This document shows positions 5 through 51,711 of a DNA stretch of 64,000 nucleotides, piece by piece. This stretch comes from a virus. The position numbers and the translations under genes are program-made. The notes below the pieces were generated by a model. The model worked only from the letters and a program-made list of their open reading frames with translations. It was not told the origin of the DNA and did not search any database. The DNA is taken from the UHGV virus genome UHGV-2031204; one strand, given 5' to 3'. The number at the start of each line of letters is the position of its first letter. The first letter of the stretch is position 1.

Positions 5-523
5 GTGATGTCTGGAGAAACGCCAGAGTTTATCCTGGAAAGTATCTGCCGTTACGTATACGGTGATGACAATATCCATTTTGAAGATTTGGTCATTCGT
101 GTTTCACCCCGTGTAATGACGGTGATGCGCAACTATCTTTCAGCTATGGTTGTGGATGAACAGCTTGCTGTAGGTAACGATGCGCGTCTGACGCGTATTG
201 CAGAATACTTGCGTCTTTATCCGCAAAACCCTTCTGCGTTCGTATTCCTAAACCTACCTGAAGATCCCGATTTGACGGTTGTCCAACAATCGTTAGTGTT
301 TGACGTCGAAGATTACAGCGAAACAGAATTACTCGAGATGTATACGGTAGGGCTTTCGATTATCGATAACGATGACTTCGATGACGCGTATGCCGATCTT
401 TCGACGAACTTAGAGAAACTTAATAATGATGGGTTACAACCCATTACTGTTTTACAACCTGCATTAAAAAGCCTACGGCTGATTTATCAGGTTGAGGAGG
501 CAGAGCACGATGACGAGGTTTGA
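5..523 (+). CDS. hypothetical protein (possibly 5-prime truncated at window edge)
   Basis: ORF open from window start (GTG 5 / ATG 8); overlaps next gene by 14 nt; no motif recognised. Confidence 0.45.
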   Translation: MMSGETPEFILESICRYVYGDDNIHFEDLVIRVSPRVMTVMRNYLSAMVVDEQLAVGNDARLTRIAEYLRLYPQNPSAFVFLNLPEDPDLTVVQQSLVFDVEDYSETELLEMYTVGLSIIDNDDFDDAYADLSTNLEKLNNDGLQPITVLQPALKSLRLIYQVEEAEHDDEV

Positions 524-1811
524 GTTCTTAGTAGCGGCATGTAAAGCAGAGGCATGGCGACGTCTGGTCTGGCGCATTGCTATTTTTAACATGTCGGTAT
601 TTCCAACAGGGCGCGAAGAACCCGAAGCGTTTGATATAACGTATATCGACGGCTTACCGCATTATTACGCTGTAGAAGACGGCAAGGGCAGTTGGGAACC
701 GATTACTGACGGCGTAAAGGACCAGGAGCTGTTTGTCCCTGAAGAACAGTTCGAGCTACGCCCTGACGATTATCCCGGTTTAGACGGTCCTATTCCCACG
801 ACAGTAGGACGATACGTTTTTAACTGGATTGTTATCTGGTATGCATTTGGTACACGCTTACCCTATCTGGCGATTTCACAAAACCCGTTGGAATATCGCA
901 AAGAGATGCATCGGCGTTGTTTAGACCATGAAACCGATGAGCCAGAAAACGAAGGTGCAATTCGACCGAGTATGATTGAGCGCTTTGTAAGCGGTTTACA
1001 CGAACTCGCGCCACTTACGTCAGGGATTGCACCAACCGGTACGTTACGAAGTCTCACAGTGCATCCTGATGCGTATAAAATCCGCGATGCGTTACTGTTG
1101 AAGCACAAAGACGAGTTAGACGATCCTGCCGTTATCGTTAAGATTGAAAAAGCGTTGGATGAGTTAGACAAAGAATGGTTGTCGGGTGACCAATCTATTG
1201 AGTTTTATAACTCGCCGAAATCGCGGATGCGTCGACGTAAATTAATGCTGATGTACGGTATCGAATCGTCTTTTCAGGAAGGGGGTCATTACACGCTCAT
1301 TCCGAACGCGTTAGTTGAAGTTGATAAGGCGGGGATGGAAAACCTGGTTGCGAAATTCAACTCTATCCGTGAAGGTTCATTCTCTCGTGGTGCGGAAACA
1401 GCGAAAGGGGGTGAGCAGGTACGTATTATCCAGATGATTTTCCAGAACCACCGAATCGTCCCTGGTGACTGCGGAACGAAACTAACGTACCCGGTTGTGA
1501 TTACCGAAGATAACGTAAAACGTTACGTTGGGATGAATGCGATGGTTAATGGTAAACTGACACCATTGACTGAGGAATATTTAAAACAACAGTTAGGTAA
1601 GGTGGTGCGGTTACGCCGACCCATCTTATGTCAGTATGGCCACATCGACACCTGCACAGCGTGTTCGTCTGCGAATAAAGGGGAAGAACCTCGCGCAATC
1701 GCTGCGGATATATCCTCGGCGTTCTCTAACGTTATGTCCGTGGCAATGGCCGCGATGCATGGTAAAGAGACAGTGGTACACGAATTTAATCCATCGATCC
1801 ACATTACGTAA
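510..1811 (+). CDS. hypothetical protein
   Basis: ATG 510 preceded by AGGAGG at 495-500; 433 aa; function not recognisable by eye. Confidence 0.55.
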   Translation: MTRFEFLVAACKAEAWRRLVWRIAIFNMSVFPTGREEPEAFDITYIDGLPHYYAVEDGKGSWEPITDGVKDQELFVPEEQFELRPDDYPGLDGPIPTTVGRYVFNWIVIWYAFGTRLPYLAISQNPLEYRKEMHRRCLDHETDEPENEGAIRPSMIERFVSGLHELAPLTSGIAPTGTLRSLTVHPDAYKIRDALLLKHKDELDDPAVIVKIEKALDELDKEWLSGDQSIEFYNSPKSRMRRRKLMLMYGIESSFQEGGHYTLIPNALVEVDKAGMENLVAKFNSIREGSFSRGAETAKGGEQVRIIQMIFQNHRIVPGDCGTKLTYPVVITEDNVKRYVGMNAMVNGKLTPLTEEYLKQQLGKVVRLRRPILCQYGHIDTCTACSSANKGEEPRAIAADISSAFSNVMSVAMAAMHGKETVVHEFNPSIHIT

Positions 1812-1824
1812 GGATTATTAGCCA

Positions 1825-2334
1825 ATGGCAACTAAAGATATTTCGACACAAGATGAGCGCCCGGCAGCTGTAAGACGCGCTGAGGAAAATGCGGTAAATT
1901 ACAGCCAAGATGACGCGTACCAGGTGCGACTTATTGCTACTCAGCTCGATGAGGCTGGCGGGGCAATTAGCCAAAATAAACCGAAAGATACCCCAGAAGC
2001 TGACGACGCTTTCCGTAAGTTACATCAATCGTTCCGTACGTTGTTTGAACTTCGTGGTCAGGCATTCATTGATGCGTTCAATGTGTTCGTTGAGGCTGCA
2101 ATTAAACACAAGCGTGGTATCTTCTACTATCCTAATGTGAACTACCATTTAGATTGGTTTTACGATTCTGCTGAACGTGAAACATATGTCGTGTTTATCA
2201 ACATGTTAGTACGCTTCGCAAATTCTCAGGATAAAGCAAACTTTGCTCAGCGTGACAACGTTGGACGTTTGGTACAACGTGTGACCGATCCAGAGCTGCA
2301 ACACTTGCTGGCTTACTGCTTCAACGCGGCATAA
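1825..2334 (+). CDS. hypothetical protein
   Basis: 169 aa ORF ending just before bidirectional terminator at 2341-2380. Confidence 0.55.
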   Translation: MATKDISTQDERPAAVRRAEENAVNYSQDDAYQVRLIATQLDEAGGAISQNKPKDTPEADDAFRKLHQSFRTLFELRGQAFIDAFNVFVEAAIKHKRGIFYYPNVNYHLDWFYDSAERETYVVFINMLVRFANSQDKANFAQRDNVGRLVQRVTDPELQHLLAYCFNAA

Positions 2335-33360: not shown

Positions 33361-35136
33361 GTGTTTAAAGATGCAATCAAAAAGCTTAAAGAGAATGGTA
33401 AAATAGTACCCTTTAACCGTGCGATTGCGGAAGGAGTCGGTTATACACAAGCCAAAGATGGTATTCACGATCGTGTACATCGTATCTTGAAACGTGAGCT
33501 AGATTACCATCCTGTAGAGAACCCTCGTGTTCCTGAAGGTTTGGCCGTGTTGGGTGTTCGTTTAATGTCGCCGTTCGAAACTTTTATCTATAAGCTGTCT
33601 CGTTCAGAGAGCAGCAGGATGGATAAGCGTCGTGGGGTGATGTCAATCGCGAATACAGATGCGTATATGGTCATGTCGTCGTTCCGTATTCCTGGAGACT
33701 CAAGACCAATCTCAAGACCGATTAACTTGCCATTCATTCGTCGTGGTGGGTTGATGAACTATTACGGAACAACGTATCATGTTGCACCTGTTATTCATCA
33801 GCCGGGTATCTGTCGTGAGCACGGCGGGGTGTTTGTTAATTTTGACTTTAAACGTAAAGCGTCATTAAAATTCTGTAAGCACCCGGTACGGATTTTAGTG
33901 AATGGGAAGAAAGAAGAGTTGTTCTTACCCGGAACAAACAATTTGTTTAAAGCCAAAAACGCCACACATCCTGATACGGACGAAAAGCCGTTAATGTACT
34001 GGCTATTCGGACGTTATGGATTTAAGGAAGCCATCAAACGTTATACCGGCGTGGATGTAGAGATATATCCTGCATTCAAAGTACCTGAAATCGATCTCGA
34101 TAAAAAAGTAGTAATCAGTTCAGGTGAGCCTAAACATAATCGGTCGATTATGTACGTAGTGACGGTTCCTGCAGAGGCTTTACCAAATCTCGATAAAGCG
34201 GGATGGGATCAAAACGAGCACTTATTACTCGTGGCGATTTCTGCATTCTTTAAAGCAGCGCACTATTATTGCGGAAAGCAAGCGATTAAAAACGGCAACG
34301 TTGTTCCTTTACCGCCGTTGTTTACCGCGATTAACGAACTTGCAATGGAGGACGATGTTGTAAACCTGAATTCCTCCGCAATTTGGCGGGAGATTTTGGG
34401 GAGAAGTATTGTTGGACTTAAACCGTCCGATATTGAACTGGCGCACAGCATGACGAAACACTATACGGAGTGTGAACGCTACGTTAACTCAACATTCCGT
34501 GGTGAGTTAATGATGTCAGATCCCGATATCCCGGACGATATGGATATGTTTGATTTCTTCTGGTACGCGACGAAGTTGATGGTGAGAACGCGCCTTACGA
34601 AACAAGGTGATATTCCGTCAATGTATGGAAAACGTCTGACCGTAACAGATTACCTGTTATTGGGTGAACGTGGCTTTACACCTACCATCGCTGCGATTCG
34701 TTTCCACTTGGGACAAACGGAAAATCGAACACCGGAGTCTTGTGCGAACATGATACGCAGTGCGTTGAATAAAGACATTGTAACCAGCCTGGTATTACGC
34801 AACATTACCGGCAATGGCGGTGTAAGTTATTTCAACGCTTCTACTGAGTCTATGGTGCTGGGGGTTTCAACCCATGCTATCAGCCAGACAGAAACAGAAT
34901 CAAAACGTAACAGCAAGGGCGGTAAGACGGTTAACCTTAATGACCGGACAAAACATGCCTCTGCATCTCATCTGGAATGTGGTAACGTGTATTACATTCC
35001 GAAGTCATCACCGTTCAAATCGGGTATTCTCAATCCGTATATGAAGACGAACACCCAACTGGTGATGGTACGTAATCCAAAACTCAACGAGTTGATCCAA
35101 GCAACCGAAGAAGACATTGCGAAGATTGGCCGTTAA
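33361..35136 (+). CDS. hypothetical protein
   Basis: 591 aa ORF, GTG start with AGGAG RBS. Confidence 0.5.
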   Translation: MFKDAIKKLKENGKIVPFNRAIAEGVGYTQAKDGIHDRVHRILKRELDYHPVENPRVPEGLAVLGVRLMSPFETFIYKLSRSESSRMDKRRGVMSIANTDAYMVMSSFRIPGDSRPISRPINLPFIRRGGLMNYYGTTYHVAPVIHQPGICREHGGVFVNFDFKRKASLKFCKHPVRILVNGKKEELFLPGTNNLFKAKNATHPDTDEKPLMYWLFGRYGFKEAIKRYTGVDVEIYPAFKVPEIDLDKKVVISSGEPKHNRSIMYVVTVPAEALPNLDKAGWDQNEHLLLVAISAFFKAAHYYCGKQAIKNGNVVPLPPLFTAINELAMEDDVVNLNSSAIWREILGRSIVGLKPSDIELAHSMTKHYTECERYVNSTFRGELMMSDPDIPDDMDMFDFFWYATKLMVRTRLTKQGDIPSMYGKRLTVTDYLLLGERGFTPTIAAIRFHLGQTENRTPESCANMIRSALNKDIVTSLVLRNITGNGGVSYFNASTESMVLGVSTHAISQTETESKRNSKGGKTVNLNDRTKHASASHLECGNVYYIPKSSPFKSGILNPYMKTNTQLVMVRNPKLNELIQATEEDIAKIGR

Positions 35137-42493: not shown

Positions 42494-43021
42494 ATGGCAT
42501 ATCGTGTCGATTTAACGAAAGCACCTAAACAAATTTTAGTAGACCGGATTAACTACGTATTTAGTCTATCCTATACTGCTGATAACATCGAGTTTAACGC
42601 AAACGGCGTTCAACCACTAACTTTAGCAGAACGTCAACGTTACGGACTAGAATCAAAGGTTGCTGCCGTCTTCCGTAACGGCGTTGTCGGAAACCAGGAA
42701 TTCATTTTAACTCGCGTTGATTTGGCAACGTTCCTGGCCGATGAACCGGTGAGTGTACCGAAAGGCGCAGTAACGTCCAGCGAAGAGTTGGCTGATTATA
42801 TCGTTGCACAAACAGGGATTGACCTGCGTGCTGACGACATTATGATTGAGCCGATTTCAGAGGAGCTGGATTCTTATGATGTTCGTCTCGTCCCGAATCA
42901 TTTGTCTTTTAAAGGAACGATTCCGGTCGTATTTACTGATTCCACCCCACGCAAATTGGCGTCTCTTGTGACGAAATTAGCGTTGGATGGGTTCCGCCCA
43001 GGAGAATTAATCAATGTCTAA
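42494..43021 (+). CDS. hypothetical protein
   Basis: 175 aa ORF with GAGAG RBS. Confidence 0.55.
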   Translation: MAYRVDLTKAPKQILVDRINYVFSLSYTADNIEFNANGVQPLTLAERQRYGLESKVAAVFRNGVVGNQEFILTRVDLATFLADEPVSVPKGAVTSSEELADYIVAQTGIDLRADDIMIEPISEELDSYDVRLVPNHLSFKGTIPVVFTDSTPRKLASLVTKLALDGFRPGELINV

Positions 43022-43901
43022 TGTCAAAGTTTACGACGGTAAACTCTCGACGGTAACGCTTAATGCGATGCGCTTGGCTACCGCATTAATTACCGGTGCT
43101 GACGTGCAATACCCGCAAAAATCCACACTGAATGAGTTCTATAAACTCATGCAAACACCAGTGCCGGACGGTAAAGCGCGTCCTCATTTGCAGTACATGG
43201 CAATTGGTAACCGTGGCCATATGGTCGACACCTCTGATGTGGTGGCTGACGTTGTGCCTGTAGGTAAAGAACCTATTGCTTCCGGGATGTTTTCCCGCGT
43301 TCCGTTTGTCCTGCGTACAAAAGACAATGATCTGTCTGACGAACAACGTAAGAACTACGCTTTTCGTACTTTGGAAACGTTTAACAAACGCGAATACTGG
43401 GCGTATTATTTAAAACGCATCGACATGCGCGCTGTAAAAACGACGGATTACGATATCAGGCGTGAGAACGGTGTTGAGACCGTCGAAGACTTTGTGTACA
43501 CAGACACGGAATTAAACCCCGTACCGAAAGTATTGCCGGACTACGATTACGACGACGATGGCACCGTTGCAATCCCAGATGGCCGTTATGTGGAGTCAGG
43601 TGCTGACCTGGTTATTCCGTGGACAGACTTTGATGTTCAGGAATATATGAACGTAACGAGCATTATGCGCGGTAGCCCGCGTAGTTCAATTATCTCTGAA
43701 CTGGCACTCTGCTCAGGGTTAGACCAGGTCGCGTCCGGGGACTCTGCAACTGGGTCTAAATTCAGCTATAACGAGGCGATCGGTGTTCAGGCGTTGTACT
43801 ATATTTCGATGTTTACCAACCTGGCACAGACGAATGACAAACTGTCTTTGACCATTCGTATCGGACAGCCTGCACCGTTCTTCCTGGGGACAGCTAACTG
43901 A
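43014..43901 (+). CDS. hypothetical protein
   Basis: 295 aa ORF overlapping upstream gene by 8 nt. Confidence 0.55.
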   Translation: MSNVKVYDGKLSTVTLNAMRLATALITGADVQYPQKSTLNEFYKLMQTPVPDGKARPHLQYMAIGNRGHMVDTSDVVADVVPVGKEPIASGMFSRVPFVLRTKDNDLSDEQRKNYAFRTLETFNKREYWAYYLKRIDMRAVKTTDYDIRRENGVETVEDFVYTDTELNPVPKVLPDYDYDDDGTVAIPDGRYVESGADLVIPWTDFDVQEYMNVTSIMRGSPRSSIISELALCSGLDQVASGDSATGSKFSYNEAIGVQALYYISMFTNLAQTNDKLSLTIRIGQPAPFFLGTAN

Positions 43902-44545
43902 TGTTGATACCCGAGCCGAGACTTCCAGATAAGATGGTAAGAATCGCGGCAATAGACCCCGGTACGAGCCATCTTGGTATGGCTGTATTGGATTGGGAAT
44001 ACGGCAGCGATCAAGCCGAAGTGGTTTGGGCTGATACCATGCATGTATTAGACCCAACGCATCCAAATGCGTTTGCAGAGTGTGTCGGTAAGCGTGACGA
44101 TCGTTTAGTTAAGCTCGAAGCTTGTTACCGTGAATTTCTTCGGATTGCCTGCCCAACTTTCGTTGCAACAGAGACACCGTTTATGCGGAGAGCAAAACTC
44201 TCCGCTTATGAATCTGGTGTCGAACTACAATTAATGTTGCGACGTACTTTGTGGGACGTTTACCCGGAGAAAATTTTACACGGCTTCAATCCTATCATTG
44301 TAAAATCATTCGTTGGGGTGGAAGCGAAGGGGACGGATAAAACCGATATGTTTCGGGCCGTGACCAAGCTCTATCGTGAACATGCTTTGTTTGATATTAC
44401 GACGTTAGATGAGCACAGTATTGATGCTGTGGCGGTGGGAAATATTTTCGTCAGGGTAAATCTGTTAAACTTAAACAGCCTGCTACCGCCTAAACAAAAG
44501 TCGACTAAGACCTCCAGGCGGAGAAGGCGTCGGAGAAAACGATAA
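43901..44545 (+). CDS. RuvC-like Holliday junction resolvase with poly-Arg C-terminal tail
   Basis: VRIAAIDPGTSHLGMAV (RuvC IDPG motif), FVATETPFM (catalytic Glu), DEHSIDAVAVG (C-terminal acidic pair); tail SRRRRRRRKR. Confidence 0.55.
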   Translation: MLIPEPRLPDKMVRIAAIDPGTSHLGMAVLDWEYGSDQAEVVWADTMHVLDPTHPNAFAECVGKRDDRLVKLEACYREFLRIACPTFVATETPFMRRAKLSAYESGVELQLMLRRTLWDVYPEKILHGFNPIIVKSFVGVEAKGTDKTDMFRAVTKLYREHALFDITTLDEHSIDAVAVGNIFVRVNLLNLNSLLPPKQKSTKTSRRRRRRRKR

Positions 44546-45123
44546 TGGAACCGAGCACACAAGCACTACCCACTGAAATACTTGACTTATTGATCCAAGC
44601 TGGAAACAGAAAGTTAAGTAAAGAACAGTCTGAACAGTTAACGAAACTCTTGAAAGCGGCGTATGGGGATGACGTCGACGTTGACGTTACCCGTTCGGGA
44701 ACAAAGATTCTTTCCGACTTACGCCCGACGCTAATCGATAACTTAGGCAAACTGTCAGAACAATTCCATCAGCAGGCAACTGACGCTGTGGAATCTCTAG
44801 GGGATGAGATTAGCAAAGAAACCATGCTAACCTTATGGCCGAAATTATCTGCTCCCCAGAAGTTCATTATTGCCCTTCTGACGTTAGCGACGGTTGTTGT
44901 AACCGGTTTCCTGGGTTACGACACGCATCAACATTTTCCAGAAGACAGTTTAGATGTTCTGATTGTGACGTTGGTACCGTTCTTTGCGTTGGTTGTTTTT
45001 GCGACTTGGCCGATTAAAACGTTGGCTTATAAGTCTCTTGAGATAGCCACAAAAGTTGTTGAGAAGAAGCTTGAGAAATCAGGCCAGCTTAAGTCGAAGA
45101 CAGAAAGCCCGACAACGAAATAA
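44545..45123 (+). CDS. hypothetical membrane protein (two hydrophobic helices)
   Basis: Segments FIIALLTLATVVVTGFLGY and VLIVTLVPFFALVVFATWPI; followed by terminator. Confidence 0.55.
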   Translation: MEPSTQALPTEILDLLIQAGNRKLSKEQSEQLTKLLKAAYGDDVDVDVTRSGTKILSDLRPTLIDNLGKLSEQFHQQATDAVESLGDEISKETMLTLWPKLSAPQKFIIALLTLATVVVTGFLGYDTHQHFPEDSLDVLIVTLVPFFALVVFATWPIKTLAYKSLEIATKVVEKKLEKSGQLKSKTESPTTK

Positions 45124-45127
45124 CATT

Positions 45128-45167
45128 AACCTCTACCTTCGGGTAGAGGTTACTTCTTTTTATTTTT
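45128..45167 (+). terminator. rho-independent terminator
   Basis: AACCTCTACC-TTCG-GGTAGAGGTT then T-run. Confidence 0.75.
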
Positions 45168-45212
45168 ACAATTTTTAAACATACTGTGAGACTTAAAAGA
45201 AGGAGTGCTATT

Positions 45213-45866
45213 GTGGAACCATTACGCTTAATGACCAGAACGTTACTGATACCTATTCAGGACCTGAAGGTTGGACCGTTGGTCACCTCCAATGGGGAAA
45301 TTGTTGATTTCGTTAAAGAGGAAAAAATTGTTACGGCGGCTTTTCAAGAGACGCTCCATCGCCATTATCGTGCAGTACCTTTATCTGGCAGTCTAGATTG
45401 TCCGGGTGTAGAGGGGAGTACGTCTGCGTTAATAGCGGAGCATTTAGAAAAGAAAGGGTTTGGGGTCGGGAAAGGACAGGTTTTTGTAGACACTGCCACA
45501 CTGAACAAATACCAAAACGACCTAATGTTACAGATAAGGAGATTACTTGCCCGTTATGGTCTTTTCTCGATTAATTGTAAGTTTGACGACGTTCGGATGT
45601 TAGACCACGGTTTTACTACCAGCCTTAAAATCTGTCGTGGTAAAAGATTCATACAGTTTACCTGGTGGGTGCCATCCCTACGAGGTGAGAGAAAAACGGT
45701 GGAAGGGCTGTATGGTTGGGCTTTATGGGCCGAAGTTCCAGTAACGAAACTCGATGCGATTATTCCACAGCATCGAAACGTTCCACTTAGCAGTTTATTT
45801 ACTTCTGGTGGGAACACCACGTGGGATGAATTTGTTAAAAACGTTTTATCGATAGGGGAACAATAA
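45213..45866 (+). CDS. hypothetical protein
   Basis: GTG 45213 seven nt after AAGGAG (longest ORF from 45186). Confidence 0.5.
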   Translation: MEPLRLMTRTLLIPIQDLKVGPLVTSNGEIVDFVKEEKIVTAAFQETLHRHYRAVPLSGSLDCPGVEGSTSALIAEHLEKKGFGVGKGQVFVDTATLNKYQNDLMLQIRRLLARYGLFSINCKFDDVRMLDHGFTTSLKICRGKRFIQFTWWVPSLRGERKTVEGLYGWALWAEVPVTKLDAIIPQHRNVPLSSLFTSGGNTTWDEFVKNVLSIGEQ

Positions 45867-51105: not shown

Positions 51106-51711
51106 ATGTCAGAGATGATTCTCGATTCATTACTATTGATTACAGTATCGTATATCAACAAAACGGGCAAGTTGCCTAAGCGTGGCGTTACTATCGAACG
51201 CGACGGGTTTAAACATCGCTATCCCTTAACGAAAATTTTGGATTTAGCTGCACGTTTAGCCAAGATGCGTCGTCCGAATAGCGAAGCGGCACCGAAATAC
51301 GTTTTACTAGTTTTACAACGCGCGATTTCTGAGGTGCGTCGTAAACGCCGTCGTGCCGCGTTTCGATTTTATCCCAATTCGACGCAACAAGTGGTGGGGG
51401 AATACAACGATATGGTTGTCGATCTTCGTGCAGGTCGGAGTAATGTAACCGGGCTGGCGTATAACCGCCTTAAACGCATTCTGGACGACAGTGATGCTTT
51501 AACCACGCCACAGGAGGGACAAGCGGCTCTAACGCTTCTACGTGGCGCTGAGCTCGTTATTGTGGACACTGCCGTGCAGGCAGCAAGAATGCAACACTAT
51601 CTTGCTAAACAAGGGTTAGTCTTGCTGTGCGTAACGTCTGCACAGGCTGCTAATCTCACCGCACCACAAACGTCAGAAGTGTGGAGTGATCCGATTGTTG
51701 ATCACCAATAA
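51106..51711 (+). CDS. hypothetical protein
   Basis: 201 aa, AGAGGG RBS; followed by terminator. Confidence 0.55.
   Translation: MSEMILDSLLLITVSYINKTGKLPKRGVTIERDGFKHRYPLTKILDLAARLAKMRRPNSEAAPKYVLLVLQRAISEVRRKRRRAAFRFYPNSTQQVVGEYNDMVVDLRAGRSNVTGLAYNRLKRILDDSDALTTPQEGQAALTLLRGAELVIVDTAVQAARMQHYLAKQGLVLLCVTSAQAANLTAPQTSEVWSDPIVDHQ

Follow-up and report, generated by a model that had tools for sequence, protein, structure and literature searches.

Among solved structures, the closest relatives of the enzyme studied here are the bacterial RuvC resolvases. Structures from E. coli (1hjr), T. thermophilus (4ep4, 6s16), D. radiodurans (7w8d) and P. aeruginosa (6lw3) have an RNase H-like fold, a D-E-H-D catalytic tetrad, a Phe three residues past the catalytic Glu and a P-x-x-V-K motif. 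This Phe, which is F69 of the E. coli and F73 of the T. thermophilus enzyme, is given as conserved in PMC3864405. Several resolvases with the RuvC fold stand alone and work independently of RuvAB, namely the RuvC of Lactococcus phage bIL67 (4ktw), the poxvirus A22-type enzymes (6p7a, 5e6f), mitochondrial Ydc2 and chloroplast MOC1. According to the same paper, whose consulted passages do not mention a polybasic tail, the DNA-binding surface of bIL67 RuvC is more positive than that of E. coli RuvC and the enzyme cuts varied branched DNA. In jumbo phages, a RuvC-like resolvase without RuvB has been described and a RuvAB partner has not been reported (PMC7824862). Finally, T7 endonuclease I carries a disordered, predominantly basic N-terminal peptide of 16 residues. 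Experiments have shown that this peptide keeps the dimer on duplex DNA, and that one-dimensional diffusion along dsDNA and an efficient search for junctions depend on it (PMC9547003).

We analysed a stretch of 64,000 nt, referred to as the window, from an uncultured jumbo phage of ~224 kb, a member of the SPN3US/Asesino group within the nucleus-forming Chimalliviridae. The RuvC-like gene of the window (Table 1) corresponds to SPN3US gp85 (SPN3US_0085 / ACQ60_gp181) and Asesino gp101, with ~80% amino acid identity over residues 1-198 by tblastn. These proteins have in common the catalytic residues, the LNLNSLLPP linker, a polybasic tail and the flanking genes. They differ slightly in length, 216 aa in SPN3US as compared with 214 in the window, and in the sequence of the tail, which contains a run of seven Arg in the window protein and reads KAKAGKRKGRRRRK in gp85. 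At the DNA level, a near-identity search of the phage collection returned only Asesino, at ~73% identity, and thus the collection contains no annotated near-identical genome. Orthologs of gp85 and gp101 are mostly annotated as 'hypothetical protein'; those labelled RuvC or Holliday junction resolvase are found in SPLA5c, SPFM2, Kwan, Wellington, pVa-21, Goslar and PA1C, and the label RuvC-like is already applied to the gene in a 2021 comparative study and in a number of GenBank records. Taking all the evidence presented below, our joint reading, to which we assign a probability of about 0.6, is that the gene encodes a RuvC-family junction-resolving endonuclease of a Chimalliviridae jumbo phage whose C-terminal tail works as an electrostatic DNA tether.

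Table 1. Position of the resolvase gene, its coding features and its neighbours in the window.
Feature	Position	Strand	Remarks
Upstream gene, DUF7208/phrog_3315	43014..43901	+	Pfam E=5.8e-100; PHROG E=8.9e-116
RuvC-like Holliday-junction resolvase gene	43901..44545	+	214 aa + stop, ATG start; SPN3US gp85 / Asesino gp101 ortholog
RNase H-like/RuvC catalytic core, residues 12-188	43934..44464	+	AlphaFold2 model, Foldseek
Asp19 codon (IDPGT), predicted first catalytic carboxylate	43955..43957	+	Invariant; aligns with D7 of T. thermophilus RuvC
Glu91-Thr-Pro-Phe94 codons ('TETPF')	44171..44182	+	Predicted catalytic Glu and aromatic 'wedge' Phe; all four invariant
His172-Ser-Ile-Asp175 codons (LDEHSIDA)	44414..44425	+	Predicted third and fourth catalytic residues, start of last helix
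Linker LNLNSLLPP, residues 189-197	44465..44491	+	Conserved hydrophobic/proline stretch from last helix to basic cluster
Polybasic C-terminal tail KQKSTKTSRRRRRRRKR, residues 198-214	44492..44542	+	12 K/R, no acidic residue
Arg/Lys run within tail	44516..44542	+	Protein end SRRRRRRRKR
Downstream gene, phrog_8722	44545..45123	+	192 aa; PHROG E=3.1e-69; two TM-like segments
Putative bidirectional intrinsic terminator	45127..45152	.	Perfect 11-bp hairpin, loop of 4, T-rich runs on both strands

The open reading frame and its arginine-rich end are present as a previous sequence-only reading had described them, and the RuvC-like assignment made in that reading was borne out by profile matches, fold and catalytic residues. 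The window protein matched PHROG 159 ('RuvC-like Holliday junction resolvase') with an E-value of 4.2e-37 and coverage of residues 1-211, and a profile built from the family retrieved RuvC chains only when compared with the PDB at E<=1e-3 (best, 6s16 with 1.5e-4). The Pfam RuvC model (PF02075) did not match the window protein at E<=1, and NCBIfam NF000711 scored it with 14.2 bits, below the curated cut-off of 163. Because it falls under both RuvC cut-offs, the protein belongs to a divergent RuvC-like phage clade rather than to the bacterial RuvC equivalog, and its identification comes through PHROGs, the family profile and the fold. Among 25 members of the family, five matched PF02075 at E<=0.01, the best of them with E=1.8e-7. 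By tblastn, 217 phage records matched the window protein, nearly all of them jumbo phages, including Goslar, RAY and PA1C. The apparent homologs in SPFM7, SPFM8, SPFM9, SPFM1 and SPFM20, in which blocks of 20 aa appear in reversed order, were left out as what looks like a record artefact.

An AlphaFold2 monomer model (mean pLDDT 86.9, pTM 0.84) predicted a RuvC-like fold, with a core in which the elements follow the order beta1-3, alpha, beta4, alpha, beta5, alpha, alpha. When this model was compared with the PDB using Foldseek, the best 12 matches were bacterial RuvC structures, with E-values from 5e-10 to 1e-7 and target-normalised TM-scores of 0.68-0.79. They were followed by phage bIL67 RuvC, the poxvirus resolvase, Ydc2 and MOC1 (E 6e-5 to 8e-4), which are also further than bacterial RuvC in sequence. 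Although fold, tetrad, Phe and P-x-x-V-K motif are common to the window protein and bacterial RuvC, their identity is only ~20%, and the window protein departs from bacterial RuvC in having insertions that extend the core to ~188 residues, an acidic core and the polybasic C-terminal tail.

Failure to align with the catalytic tetrad of RuvC had been set beforehand as the result that would refute the assignment, and it did not occur: D19/E91/H172/D175 of the window protein match the D/E/H/D of the T. thermophilus and D. radiodurans enzymes. In the 'VEEQF' segment of T. thermophilus RuvC, the counterparts of E91 and F94 are E70 and F73, and H172 and D175 pair with the H and the D of 'nnHAADALA' in the D. 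radiodurans enzyme (7w8d). These four residues together with F94 were invariant in 25/25 homologs (39-78% identity). On the basis of these alignments, the predicted metal-binding tetrad and the wedge Phe94 are intact. The catalytic blocks listed by the sequence-only reading stand in the case of IDPG (D19) and the Glu (E91), while the C-terminal 'acidic pair' has to be corrected, since the third position is occupied by His172, accompanied by D175. The window tetrad also differs from the D-E-D-D that bIL67 RuvC uses according to PMC3864405.

Beyond this conventional core, the protein ends in a strongly charged extension. Net charge is +12 for K198-R214, again +12 for the whole of the 26 residues past the last helix, and -5 for the folded core. 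Such a run of basic residues is far beyond chance. With K+R making up 11.6% of the 63 long ORFs of the window (19,279 residues), ~6.5e-5 runs of at least nine K/R are expected in the complete set, and shuffling of the resolvase sequence yielded a run of that length in 2 out of 200,000 shuffles. The resolvase is also the sole window ORF of at least 60 aa with at least eight K/R in any 12 residues. Its eight tail Arg are encoded by five codons (AGG, CGG, AGA, CGT, CGA), indicating that the tail is not a nucleotide-repeat artefact. The tail had been called unusual for RuvC, and this holds, because the solved RuvC chains that matched comprise 158-179 residues and leave the tail unaligned, and ~79% of the representatives of the phage family lack it.

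In the AlphaFold2 model, pLDDT is ~80 for residues 191-200 and falls to 52-56 for residues 201-214, which show no secondary structure; the polybasic tail is therefore predicted to be disordered. The window tail thus combines terminal position, predicted disorder and strong basic charge, the traits of tether peptides of the T7 endonuclease I type. Both proteins are phage junction-resolving enzymes with a terminal disordered basic peptide outside the folded domain. They are unlike in that T7 endonuclease I has a restriction-endonuclease-like fold, carries its peptide at the N-terminus and shows a less extreme charge, and the likeness is one of mechanism only, not of family.

To place the tail in the family, for which there were 1,156 hits in all, the net charge past the last helix was compared across 165 representatives. 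The distribution was bimodal: 130 proteins fell in the range from -3 to +3, and the other 35 in the range from +6 to +19. In a clade that includes the window phage, SPN3US and Vibrio phage pVa-21, the tail was present in 27/27 representatives, down to ~35% core identity, and within it the composition of the tail is kept while the order of its residues varies. The tail is a conserved clade feature and not a peculiarity of the window gene. About seven scattered lineages are tailed, which suggests that the tail was gained repeatedly. Nucleus-forming phages RAY and PA1C have RuvC orthologs without the tail and the end of the Goslar ortholog is only weakly basic, meaning that a strongly basic tail is not required for the basic job of the enzyme. 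The linker preceding the tail is near-identical in close homologs and can still be made out, as L-x-L-P-x-L-F/L, in tailed homologs that are distant. With respect to the whole protein, mean net charge is ~-2.4 in untailed and ~+7 in tailed members. The cores of tailed members are a little more acidic than those of untailed ones (-4.5 versus -2.7, P = 0.003 without correction for phylogeny), a weak shift that suggests acidic-core compensation for the tail but does not decide it. The literature searched contained no description of a polybasic tail on these resolvases.

The gene lies in a string formed by a virion protein, the RuvC-like protein, a small membrane protein and a terminator. The TGA of the upstream gene overlaps the resolvase ATG by one base (cTGATG), and the resolvase stop codon overlaps the downstream ATG in the same way (TAATG), an arrangement consistent with translational coupling. 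The downstream protein has hydrophobic, TM-like segments at ~104-126 and 133-159 by hydropathy. Coupling to a two-helix membrane protein, as the sequence-only reading had it, agrees with these observations; the upstream gene, described there as unknown, is instead a DUF7208/phrog_3315 member, whose SPN3US counterpart is annotated as 'putative virion structural protein 10'. The hairpin behind the downstream gene, called by a consensus scan alone, likely ends the transcription unit as a bidirectional intrinsic terminator. Judged by the position of annotated genes, a comparison in which homology of the neighbours to the window genes plays no part, the order of a ~290-aa gene, the RuvC-like gene and a small protein gene is the same in Asesino, SPN3US, pVa-21, PA1C and RAY. 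In pVa-21, RAY and PA1C the downstream position is occupied by a small protein with hydrophobic segments, in PA1C both genes flanking RuvC carry a virion structural annotation, and in Goslar a different gene lies downstream.

What could the tail contribute to such an enzyme? From our analysis, its most likely role is that of a nonspecific electrostatic tether to duplex DNA. By extension from RuvC and other phage resolvases, the enzyme would be a Mg2+-dependent homodimer that nicks two strands at Holliday junctions and other branches of replicating and recombining phage DNA, and this debranching would provide unbranched DNA for packaging. The enzyme presumably operates without a RuvAB partner. 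The tail would raise the affinity for DNA, so that the dimer could stay on the DNA and slide to locate junctions, and the tether would in this way stand in for the loading function that RuvAB has on bacterial RuvC. The sequence-only reading had offered nonspecific DNA affinity and capsid targeting as the two possible roles, and by analogy with T7 endonuclease I the former is the better supported.

When the complete SPN3US genome was scanned for C-termini of comparable basicity, the two longest annotated genes that had one were gp85 and an SF2 DNA helicase, both of which are DNA enzymes. None of the annotated virion proteins carried a polybasic terminus, and neither did any annotated enzyme besides gp85 and the helicase, including the DNA polymerases and the RNA polymerase subunits. 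A generic capsid or nucleus address tag is disfavoured, with virion proteins and most nuclear enzymes of SPN3US devoid of such termini. Neither gp85, gp101, RuvC nor resolvase is mentioned in the SPN3US genetics and proteomics papers (the 2016 genetics supplements included) or in the Asesino and Chimalliviridae core-genome papers, and a literature search joining RuvC, phage nucleus and chimallin found nothing.

An unlikely alternative is that the tail is a localisation device, which other DNA enzymes of the clade would share. It would favour import into the phage nucleus or retention within its chimallin boundary, for instance through contacts with the import machinery or with the shell, whose lattice has been described as negatively charged (PMC13282480). 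The DNA on which the enzyme has to work lies inside the phage nucleus, a structure that Asesino, the nearest named relative, has been shown experimentally to form (PMC11724907). In addition, SPN3US, Wellington and CR5 have a second DNA enzyme with a poly-Arg run at its end, the SF2 helicase. Poly-Arg is missing from the helicases of Goslar, PhiPA3 and Ea35-70, just as a strongly basic tail is missing from the RuvC of Goslar, of the PhiPA3-like PA1C and of RAY, which belongs to the Ea35-70 genus. This co-variation of helicase and RuvC tails is only partial, however: it is seen in the enterobacterial clade and unclear in pVa-21, which has the RuvC tail and no clear helicase tail. Furthermore, nuclear import has been reported to proceed via surface patches recognised by Imp1/PicA and not via terminal signals (review PMC13282480), the RuvC orthologs of other nucleus-forming phages are untailed, and the polymerases of SPN3US, as noted above, lack such a terminus. 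A narrower version, in which the poly-Arg tails of at least two DNA enzymes, resolvase and SF2 helicase, form a linear signal of the SPN3US/Asesino clade that concentrates or retains them in the phage nucleus, on the acidic shell or at docked capsids, seems to us a shade less probable again. If true, it would amount to a simple NLS-like device in phages whose import is now thought to depend on folded surface patches only.

We consider it still more doubtful that the C-terminal extension is mainly a protein- or RNA-interaction module, with L-x-L-(N/P)-x-L-L/F-P and its basic flank recruiting the nuclease not to DNA itself but to a partner such as a replisome, a helicase or a terminase. Conservation of LNLNSLLPP goes beyond what a mere spacer would call for, the segment recurs as LDLPPLF and NLPSLF in distant tailed homologs, the pLDDT of the linker leaves room for partial order, and linker plus basic flank may resemble clamp-binding or PIP-like peptides. 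Nevertheless, the segment may just cap the fold, given that many untailed homologs have 5-14 residues past the last helix. The sequence of the basic part also changes freely, as is typical where the contacts are nonspecific and electrostatic.

Capsid targeting, in which the tail would direct the nuclease to the capsid or carry it on the DNA into the head as a packaged or portal-associated protein, has a very slim chance of being correct. Packaging is the stage at which resolvases act, and T4 endonuclease VII has an association with it. The window gene sits among virion structural genes, one of which it overlaps by a single base, and the virion annotation on both sides of PA1C RuvC would fit the same idea. 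However, SPN3US gp85, Asesino gp101 and PA1C RuvC carry no virion-protein annotation, unlike the genes immediately upstream, and this, together with the lack of polybasic termini among the annotated virion proteins of SPN3US, disfavours the capsid role that the sequence-only reading had raised. The absence of gp85 from the SPN3US virion-proteomics texts and supplements points weakly in the same direction, as the tables may not be searchable. Least probable of all is a neutral low-complexity tail without function, which would account for the many orthologs that do without one and is opposed by its mixed codons, its apparently repeated gain and its retention throughout the tailed clade while residue order turns over.

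Taken together, a RuvC-family resolvase probably held on DNA by its tail represents a modest variation on a known enzyme, in a gene family that is already catalogued. A resolvase is expected in these phages, because jumbo phages replicate through recombination and must debranch their DNA before packaging; what is mildly new is the polybasic tail as a conserved and probably repeatedly acquired accessory. If the tail is indeed a tether, it would provide a second, independent case of junction-resolving enzymes that use a disordered basic peptide for substrate search, and also a simple handle to engineer resolvases with a tighter hold on DNA. Should the tail affect localisation to the phage nucleus, it would bear on the selection of cargo for import.

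The RuvC-like protein of the window had no RuvC match in Pfam at E ≤ 1, and NCBIfam model NF000711 gave 14 bits, the cut-off being 163. PHROGs placed it in phrog_159, 'RuvC-like Holliday junction resolvase' (E = 4.2e-37, residues 1-211). We built a family profile from 25 homologs (39-78% identical), whose only PDB matches at E ≤ 1e-3 were RuvC chains from T. thermophilus (6s16, 4ep4) and D. radiodurans (7w8d). An AlphaFold2 model derived from the same alignment was confident (mean pLDDT 86.9, pTM 0.84) and places three strands before a helix, a strand, a second helix, another strand and the final helices, an RNase H-like order. Comparison with the PDB by Foldseek put bacterial RuvC at places 1-12 (E from 5e-10 to 1e-7; target-normalised TM 0.68-0.79), followed by phage bIL67 RuvC, poxvirus resolvases, yeast Ydc2 and chloroplast MOC1.

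Residues invariant in the family include D19 (IDPGT), E91-T-P-F94, P131, K135 and L-D-E-H172-x-x-D175. In HMMER alignments, D19 corresponded to RuvC D7, E91 and the aromatic wedge residue F94 to E70 and F73 in the 'VEEQF' of T. thermophilus RuvC, PxxVK to the 'PMQVK' of RuvC, and H172 and D175 to the H and D in the 'nnHAADALA' of D. radiodurans RuvC. Alignment of the catalytic tetrad, chosen beforehand as the test able to refute the RuvC assignment, thus left it standing. The sequence-only reading had listed IDPG, a catalytic Glu and a C-terminal acidic pair; the first two are present (D19, E91) and the acidic pair is not, the third catalytic residue being His172, as it is also a His in the T. 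thermophilus and D. radiodurans enzymes. Its main interpretation, a RuvC-like resolvase, is upheld by phrog_159, the RuvC fold and the aligned catalytic residues, and the protein is very probably a RuvC-type nuclease.

The ORF with a poly-arginine end that had been claimed is real (Table). The TGA of the upstream ORF shares one base with the ATG of the RuvC-like gene, whose TAA shares one base with the ATG of the downstream ORF. Such close packing of the three genes is consistent with the coupling to both neighbours proposed earlier, here as translational coupling, and the downstream protein, expected to be a two-helix membrane protein, has two TM-like segments. Judging from its sequence, the hairpin that follows is likely a bidirectional terminator separating the membrane-protein gene from the gene after it, and seems to close the transcription unit. 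Other neighbouring genes matched major head protein, virion structural proteins, internal head protein, polymerase and a DprA-like protein. Directly after the RuvC-like gene, pVa-21 (gp021), RAY (gp13) and PA1C also encode small proteins that have hydrophobic segments; the PA1C protein has one, at its N-terminus, and is annotated as a virion structural protein. The ORF starting mechanically at 45186 is called as 217 aa on identical metagenome contigs, and its start is probably downstream, at about 45213.

Table. Coordinates of the features in the window and in compared phage genomes
Feature	Source	Coordinates	Strand	Remarks
Upstream ORF	window	43014..43901		
RuvC-like gene	window	43901..44545	+	ATG start, 214 aa, end ...LLPPKQKSTKTSRRRRRRRKR
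Downstream protein	window	44545..45123	+	192 aa, phrog_8722, two TM-like segments
Hairpin, putative terminator	window	45127..45152		perfect 11 bp, TAACCTCTACC-TTCG-GGTAGAGGTTA; T-rich runs on both strands; directly past third gene
ORF	window	45186..45866	+	226 aa from GTG
ORF	window	51106..51711	+	201 aa, internal RRKRRR cluster at residue 78
ORF	SPN3US	91896..92495		internal ...RRKRRR cluster resembling that of window 51106..51711
SF2 DNA helicase	SPN3US, NC_027402.1 (stretch L008)	33403..35109		end ...GVSRRRRRR, +9
SF2 helicase	Wellington (stretch L013)	389..2086		basic tail, poly-Arg C-terminus
SF2 helicase	CR5 (stretch L014)	401..2101		basic tail, end ...GRRGRRR

Lysine and arginine make up 11.6% of the 19,279 residues in the 63 long ORFs of the window, and about 6.5e-5 runs of at least nine K/R are expected there by chance; shuffling the RuvC-like protein yielded such a run in 2 of 200,000 trials. 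The basic run is not a chance event. No other window ORF of at least 60 aa has eight or more K/R within 12 residues. Five different codons encode the eight arginines of the run, so it is the protein sequence that is kept, and the run does not stem from a DNA repeat. The last helix of the model ends at residue 188; pLDDT is about 80 for residues 191-200 and 52-56 for residues 201-214, which have no secondary structure, and these values predict that the polybasic part is disordered.

All 24 other homologs in the alignment carry a basic tail, different in sequence and similar in composition. A hydrophobic/proline linker stands before it and is conserved, reading LNLNSLLPP, with LDLPPLF or NLPSLF in its place in distant members. 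Searching the whole library with HMMER brought up 1,156 family members at E ≤ 1e-3. We aligned 165 sequences: the window protein, those of five named phages, and representatives drawn from the two homolog searches. Net charge past the last helix was bimodal (-3 to +3 in 130, +6 to +19 in 35). In a neighbour-joining tree of the cores, 27 tailed sequences formed one clade including the window protein, SPN3US and Vibrio phage pVa-21 (about 35% identity); the remaining eight occupied seven separate positions, with eight changes by Fitch parsimony. Direct translation gave the ends ...KAKAGKRKGRRRRK for SPN3US and ...SSKKKKKRGGRRRRKKGKKG for pVa-21, a weakly basic end for Goslar and no tail for PA1C and RAY. 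Thus, the tail is a conserved clade character, and the tree suggests that it was probably gained more than once. No earlier description of it was found in the literature searched. Seven GenBank records of Salmonella phages (SPFM7, SPFM8, SPFM9, SPFM1, SPFM20, SPFM10 and SPFM14; proteins P0054-P0059) hold the RuvC-like protein with blocks of ~20 aa in reverse order, and SPFM2, 4, 16, 17 and 21 are normal; this looks like a deposition artefact, sequence lines in reverse order, 20 residues being 60 nt or one FASTA line.

Junction-resolving enzymes bind DNA electrostatically. The folded core of the window protein is acidic (net -5) and the tail brings the whole to +7; mean core charge in the family is -4.5 for tailed and -2.7 for untailed members. 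In T7 endonuclease I, a disordered, mostly basic 16-residue peptide, at the N-terminus rather than the C-terminus, holds the dimer on duplex DNA and permits one-dimensional diffusion to the junction, which without the peptide is reached by random collision only (PMC9547003). By analogy, the tail would tether the enzyme to DNA, giving longer residence and a faster junction search. Bacterial RuvC is positioned on junctions by RuvAB, a partner not reported for the jumbo-phage enzyme, so a basic tether is the most economical explanation. We put the probability that tethering is the main role of the tail at roughly 55-60%.

If the tail were an address tag, capsid- or nucleus-bound proteins should share it, and we scanned the complete SPN3US genome accordingly. 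The most basic C-terminus among its annotated genes was that of the RuvC-like ortholog gp85 (+12 over the last 20 residues), and no DNA polymerase or RNA polymerase subunit had such an end. One other enzyme did, an SF2 DNA helicase, tailed also in Wellington and CR5, not clearly so in pVa-21, and untailed in Goslar, PhiPA3 and Ea35-70. That two DNA enzymes of one clade share a polybasic C-terminus fits a DNA-binding role; it would also fit a clade-specific device for localisation to, or retention in, the phage nucleus, an improbable reading given that import reportedly uses surface patches, not terminal signals (PMC13282480). Capsid targeting, raised by the sequence-only reading, fares worst: no SPN3US virion structural protein has such a C-terminus, gp85, Asesino gp101 and PA1C RuvC lack the virion annotation that the gene directly upstream of each carries, and gp85 is unmentioned in the SPN3US papers, as far as these were accessible.

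In the DNA surrounding the gene, the closest deposited phage is Erwinia phage Asesino, at only about 73% identity; formation of a chimallin nucleus by Asesino has been demonstrated experimentally (PMC11724907). Asesino (gp99-gp104) and Salmonella phage SPN3US (SPN3US_0083-0088) have the gene order of the window, and their orthologs share about 80% amino-acid identity with the window protein. In public assemblies, 217 blocks (loci L019-L022) contain the identical protein, on ~224 kb contigs from several metagenome samples; the window phage is therefore a common, uncultured jumbo phage, widespread, and the phage collection has no close cultured representative of it. By tblastn, the protein was found in 217 phage records, nearly all of jumbo phages, including Goslar, RAY, PA1C, Psa21 and many Vibrio, Serratia, Klebsiella and Ralstonia phages, and several records label the gene as RuvC or Holliday junction resolvase. 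According to a comparative study, a RuvC-like resolvase with no accompanying RuvB is present in most jumbo phages of these groups (PMC7824862). The enzyme itself is thus already known; the gene, carried by an uncultured phage, adds a member to an established family, the RuvC-like resolvases of Chimalliviridae. Its polybasic tail is genuine and conserved, though not all nucleus-forming phages need it, and its probable role, tethering to DNA, is a conventional one; other phages do without the tail.
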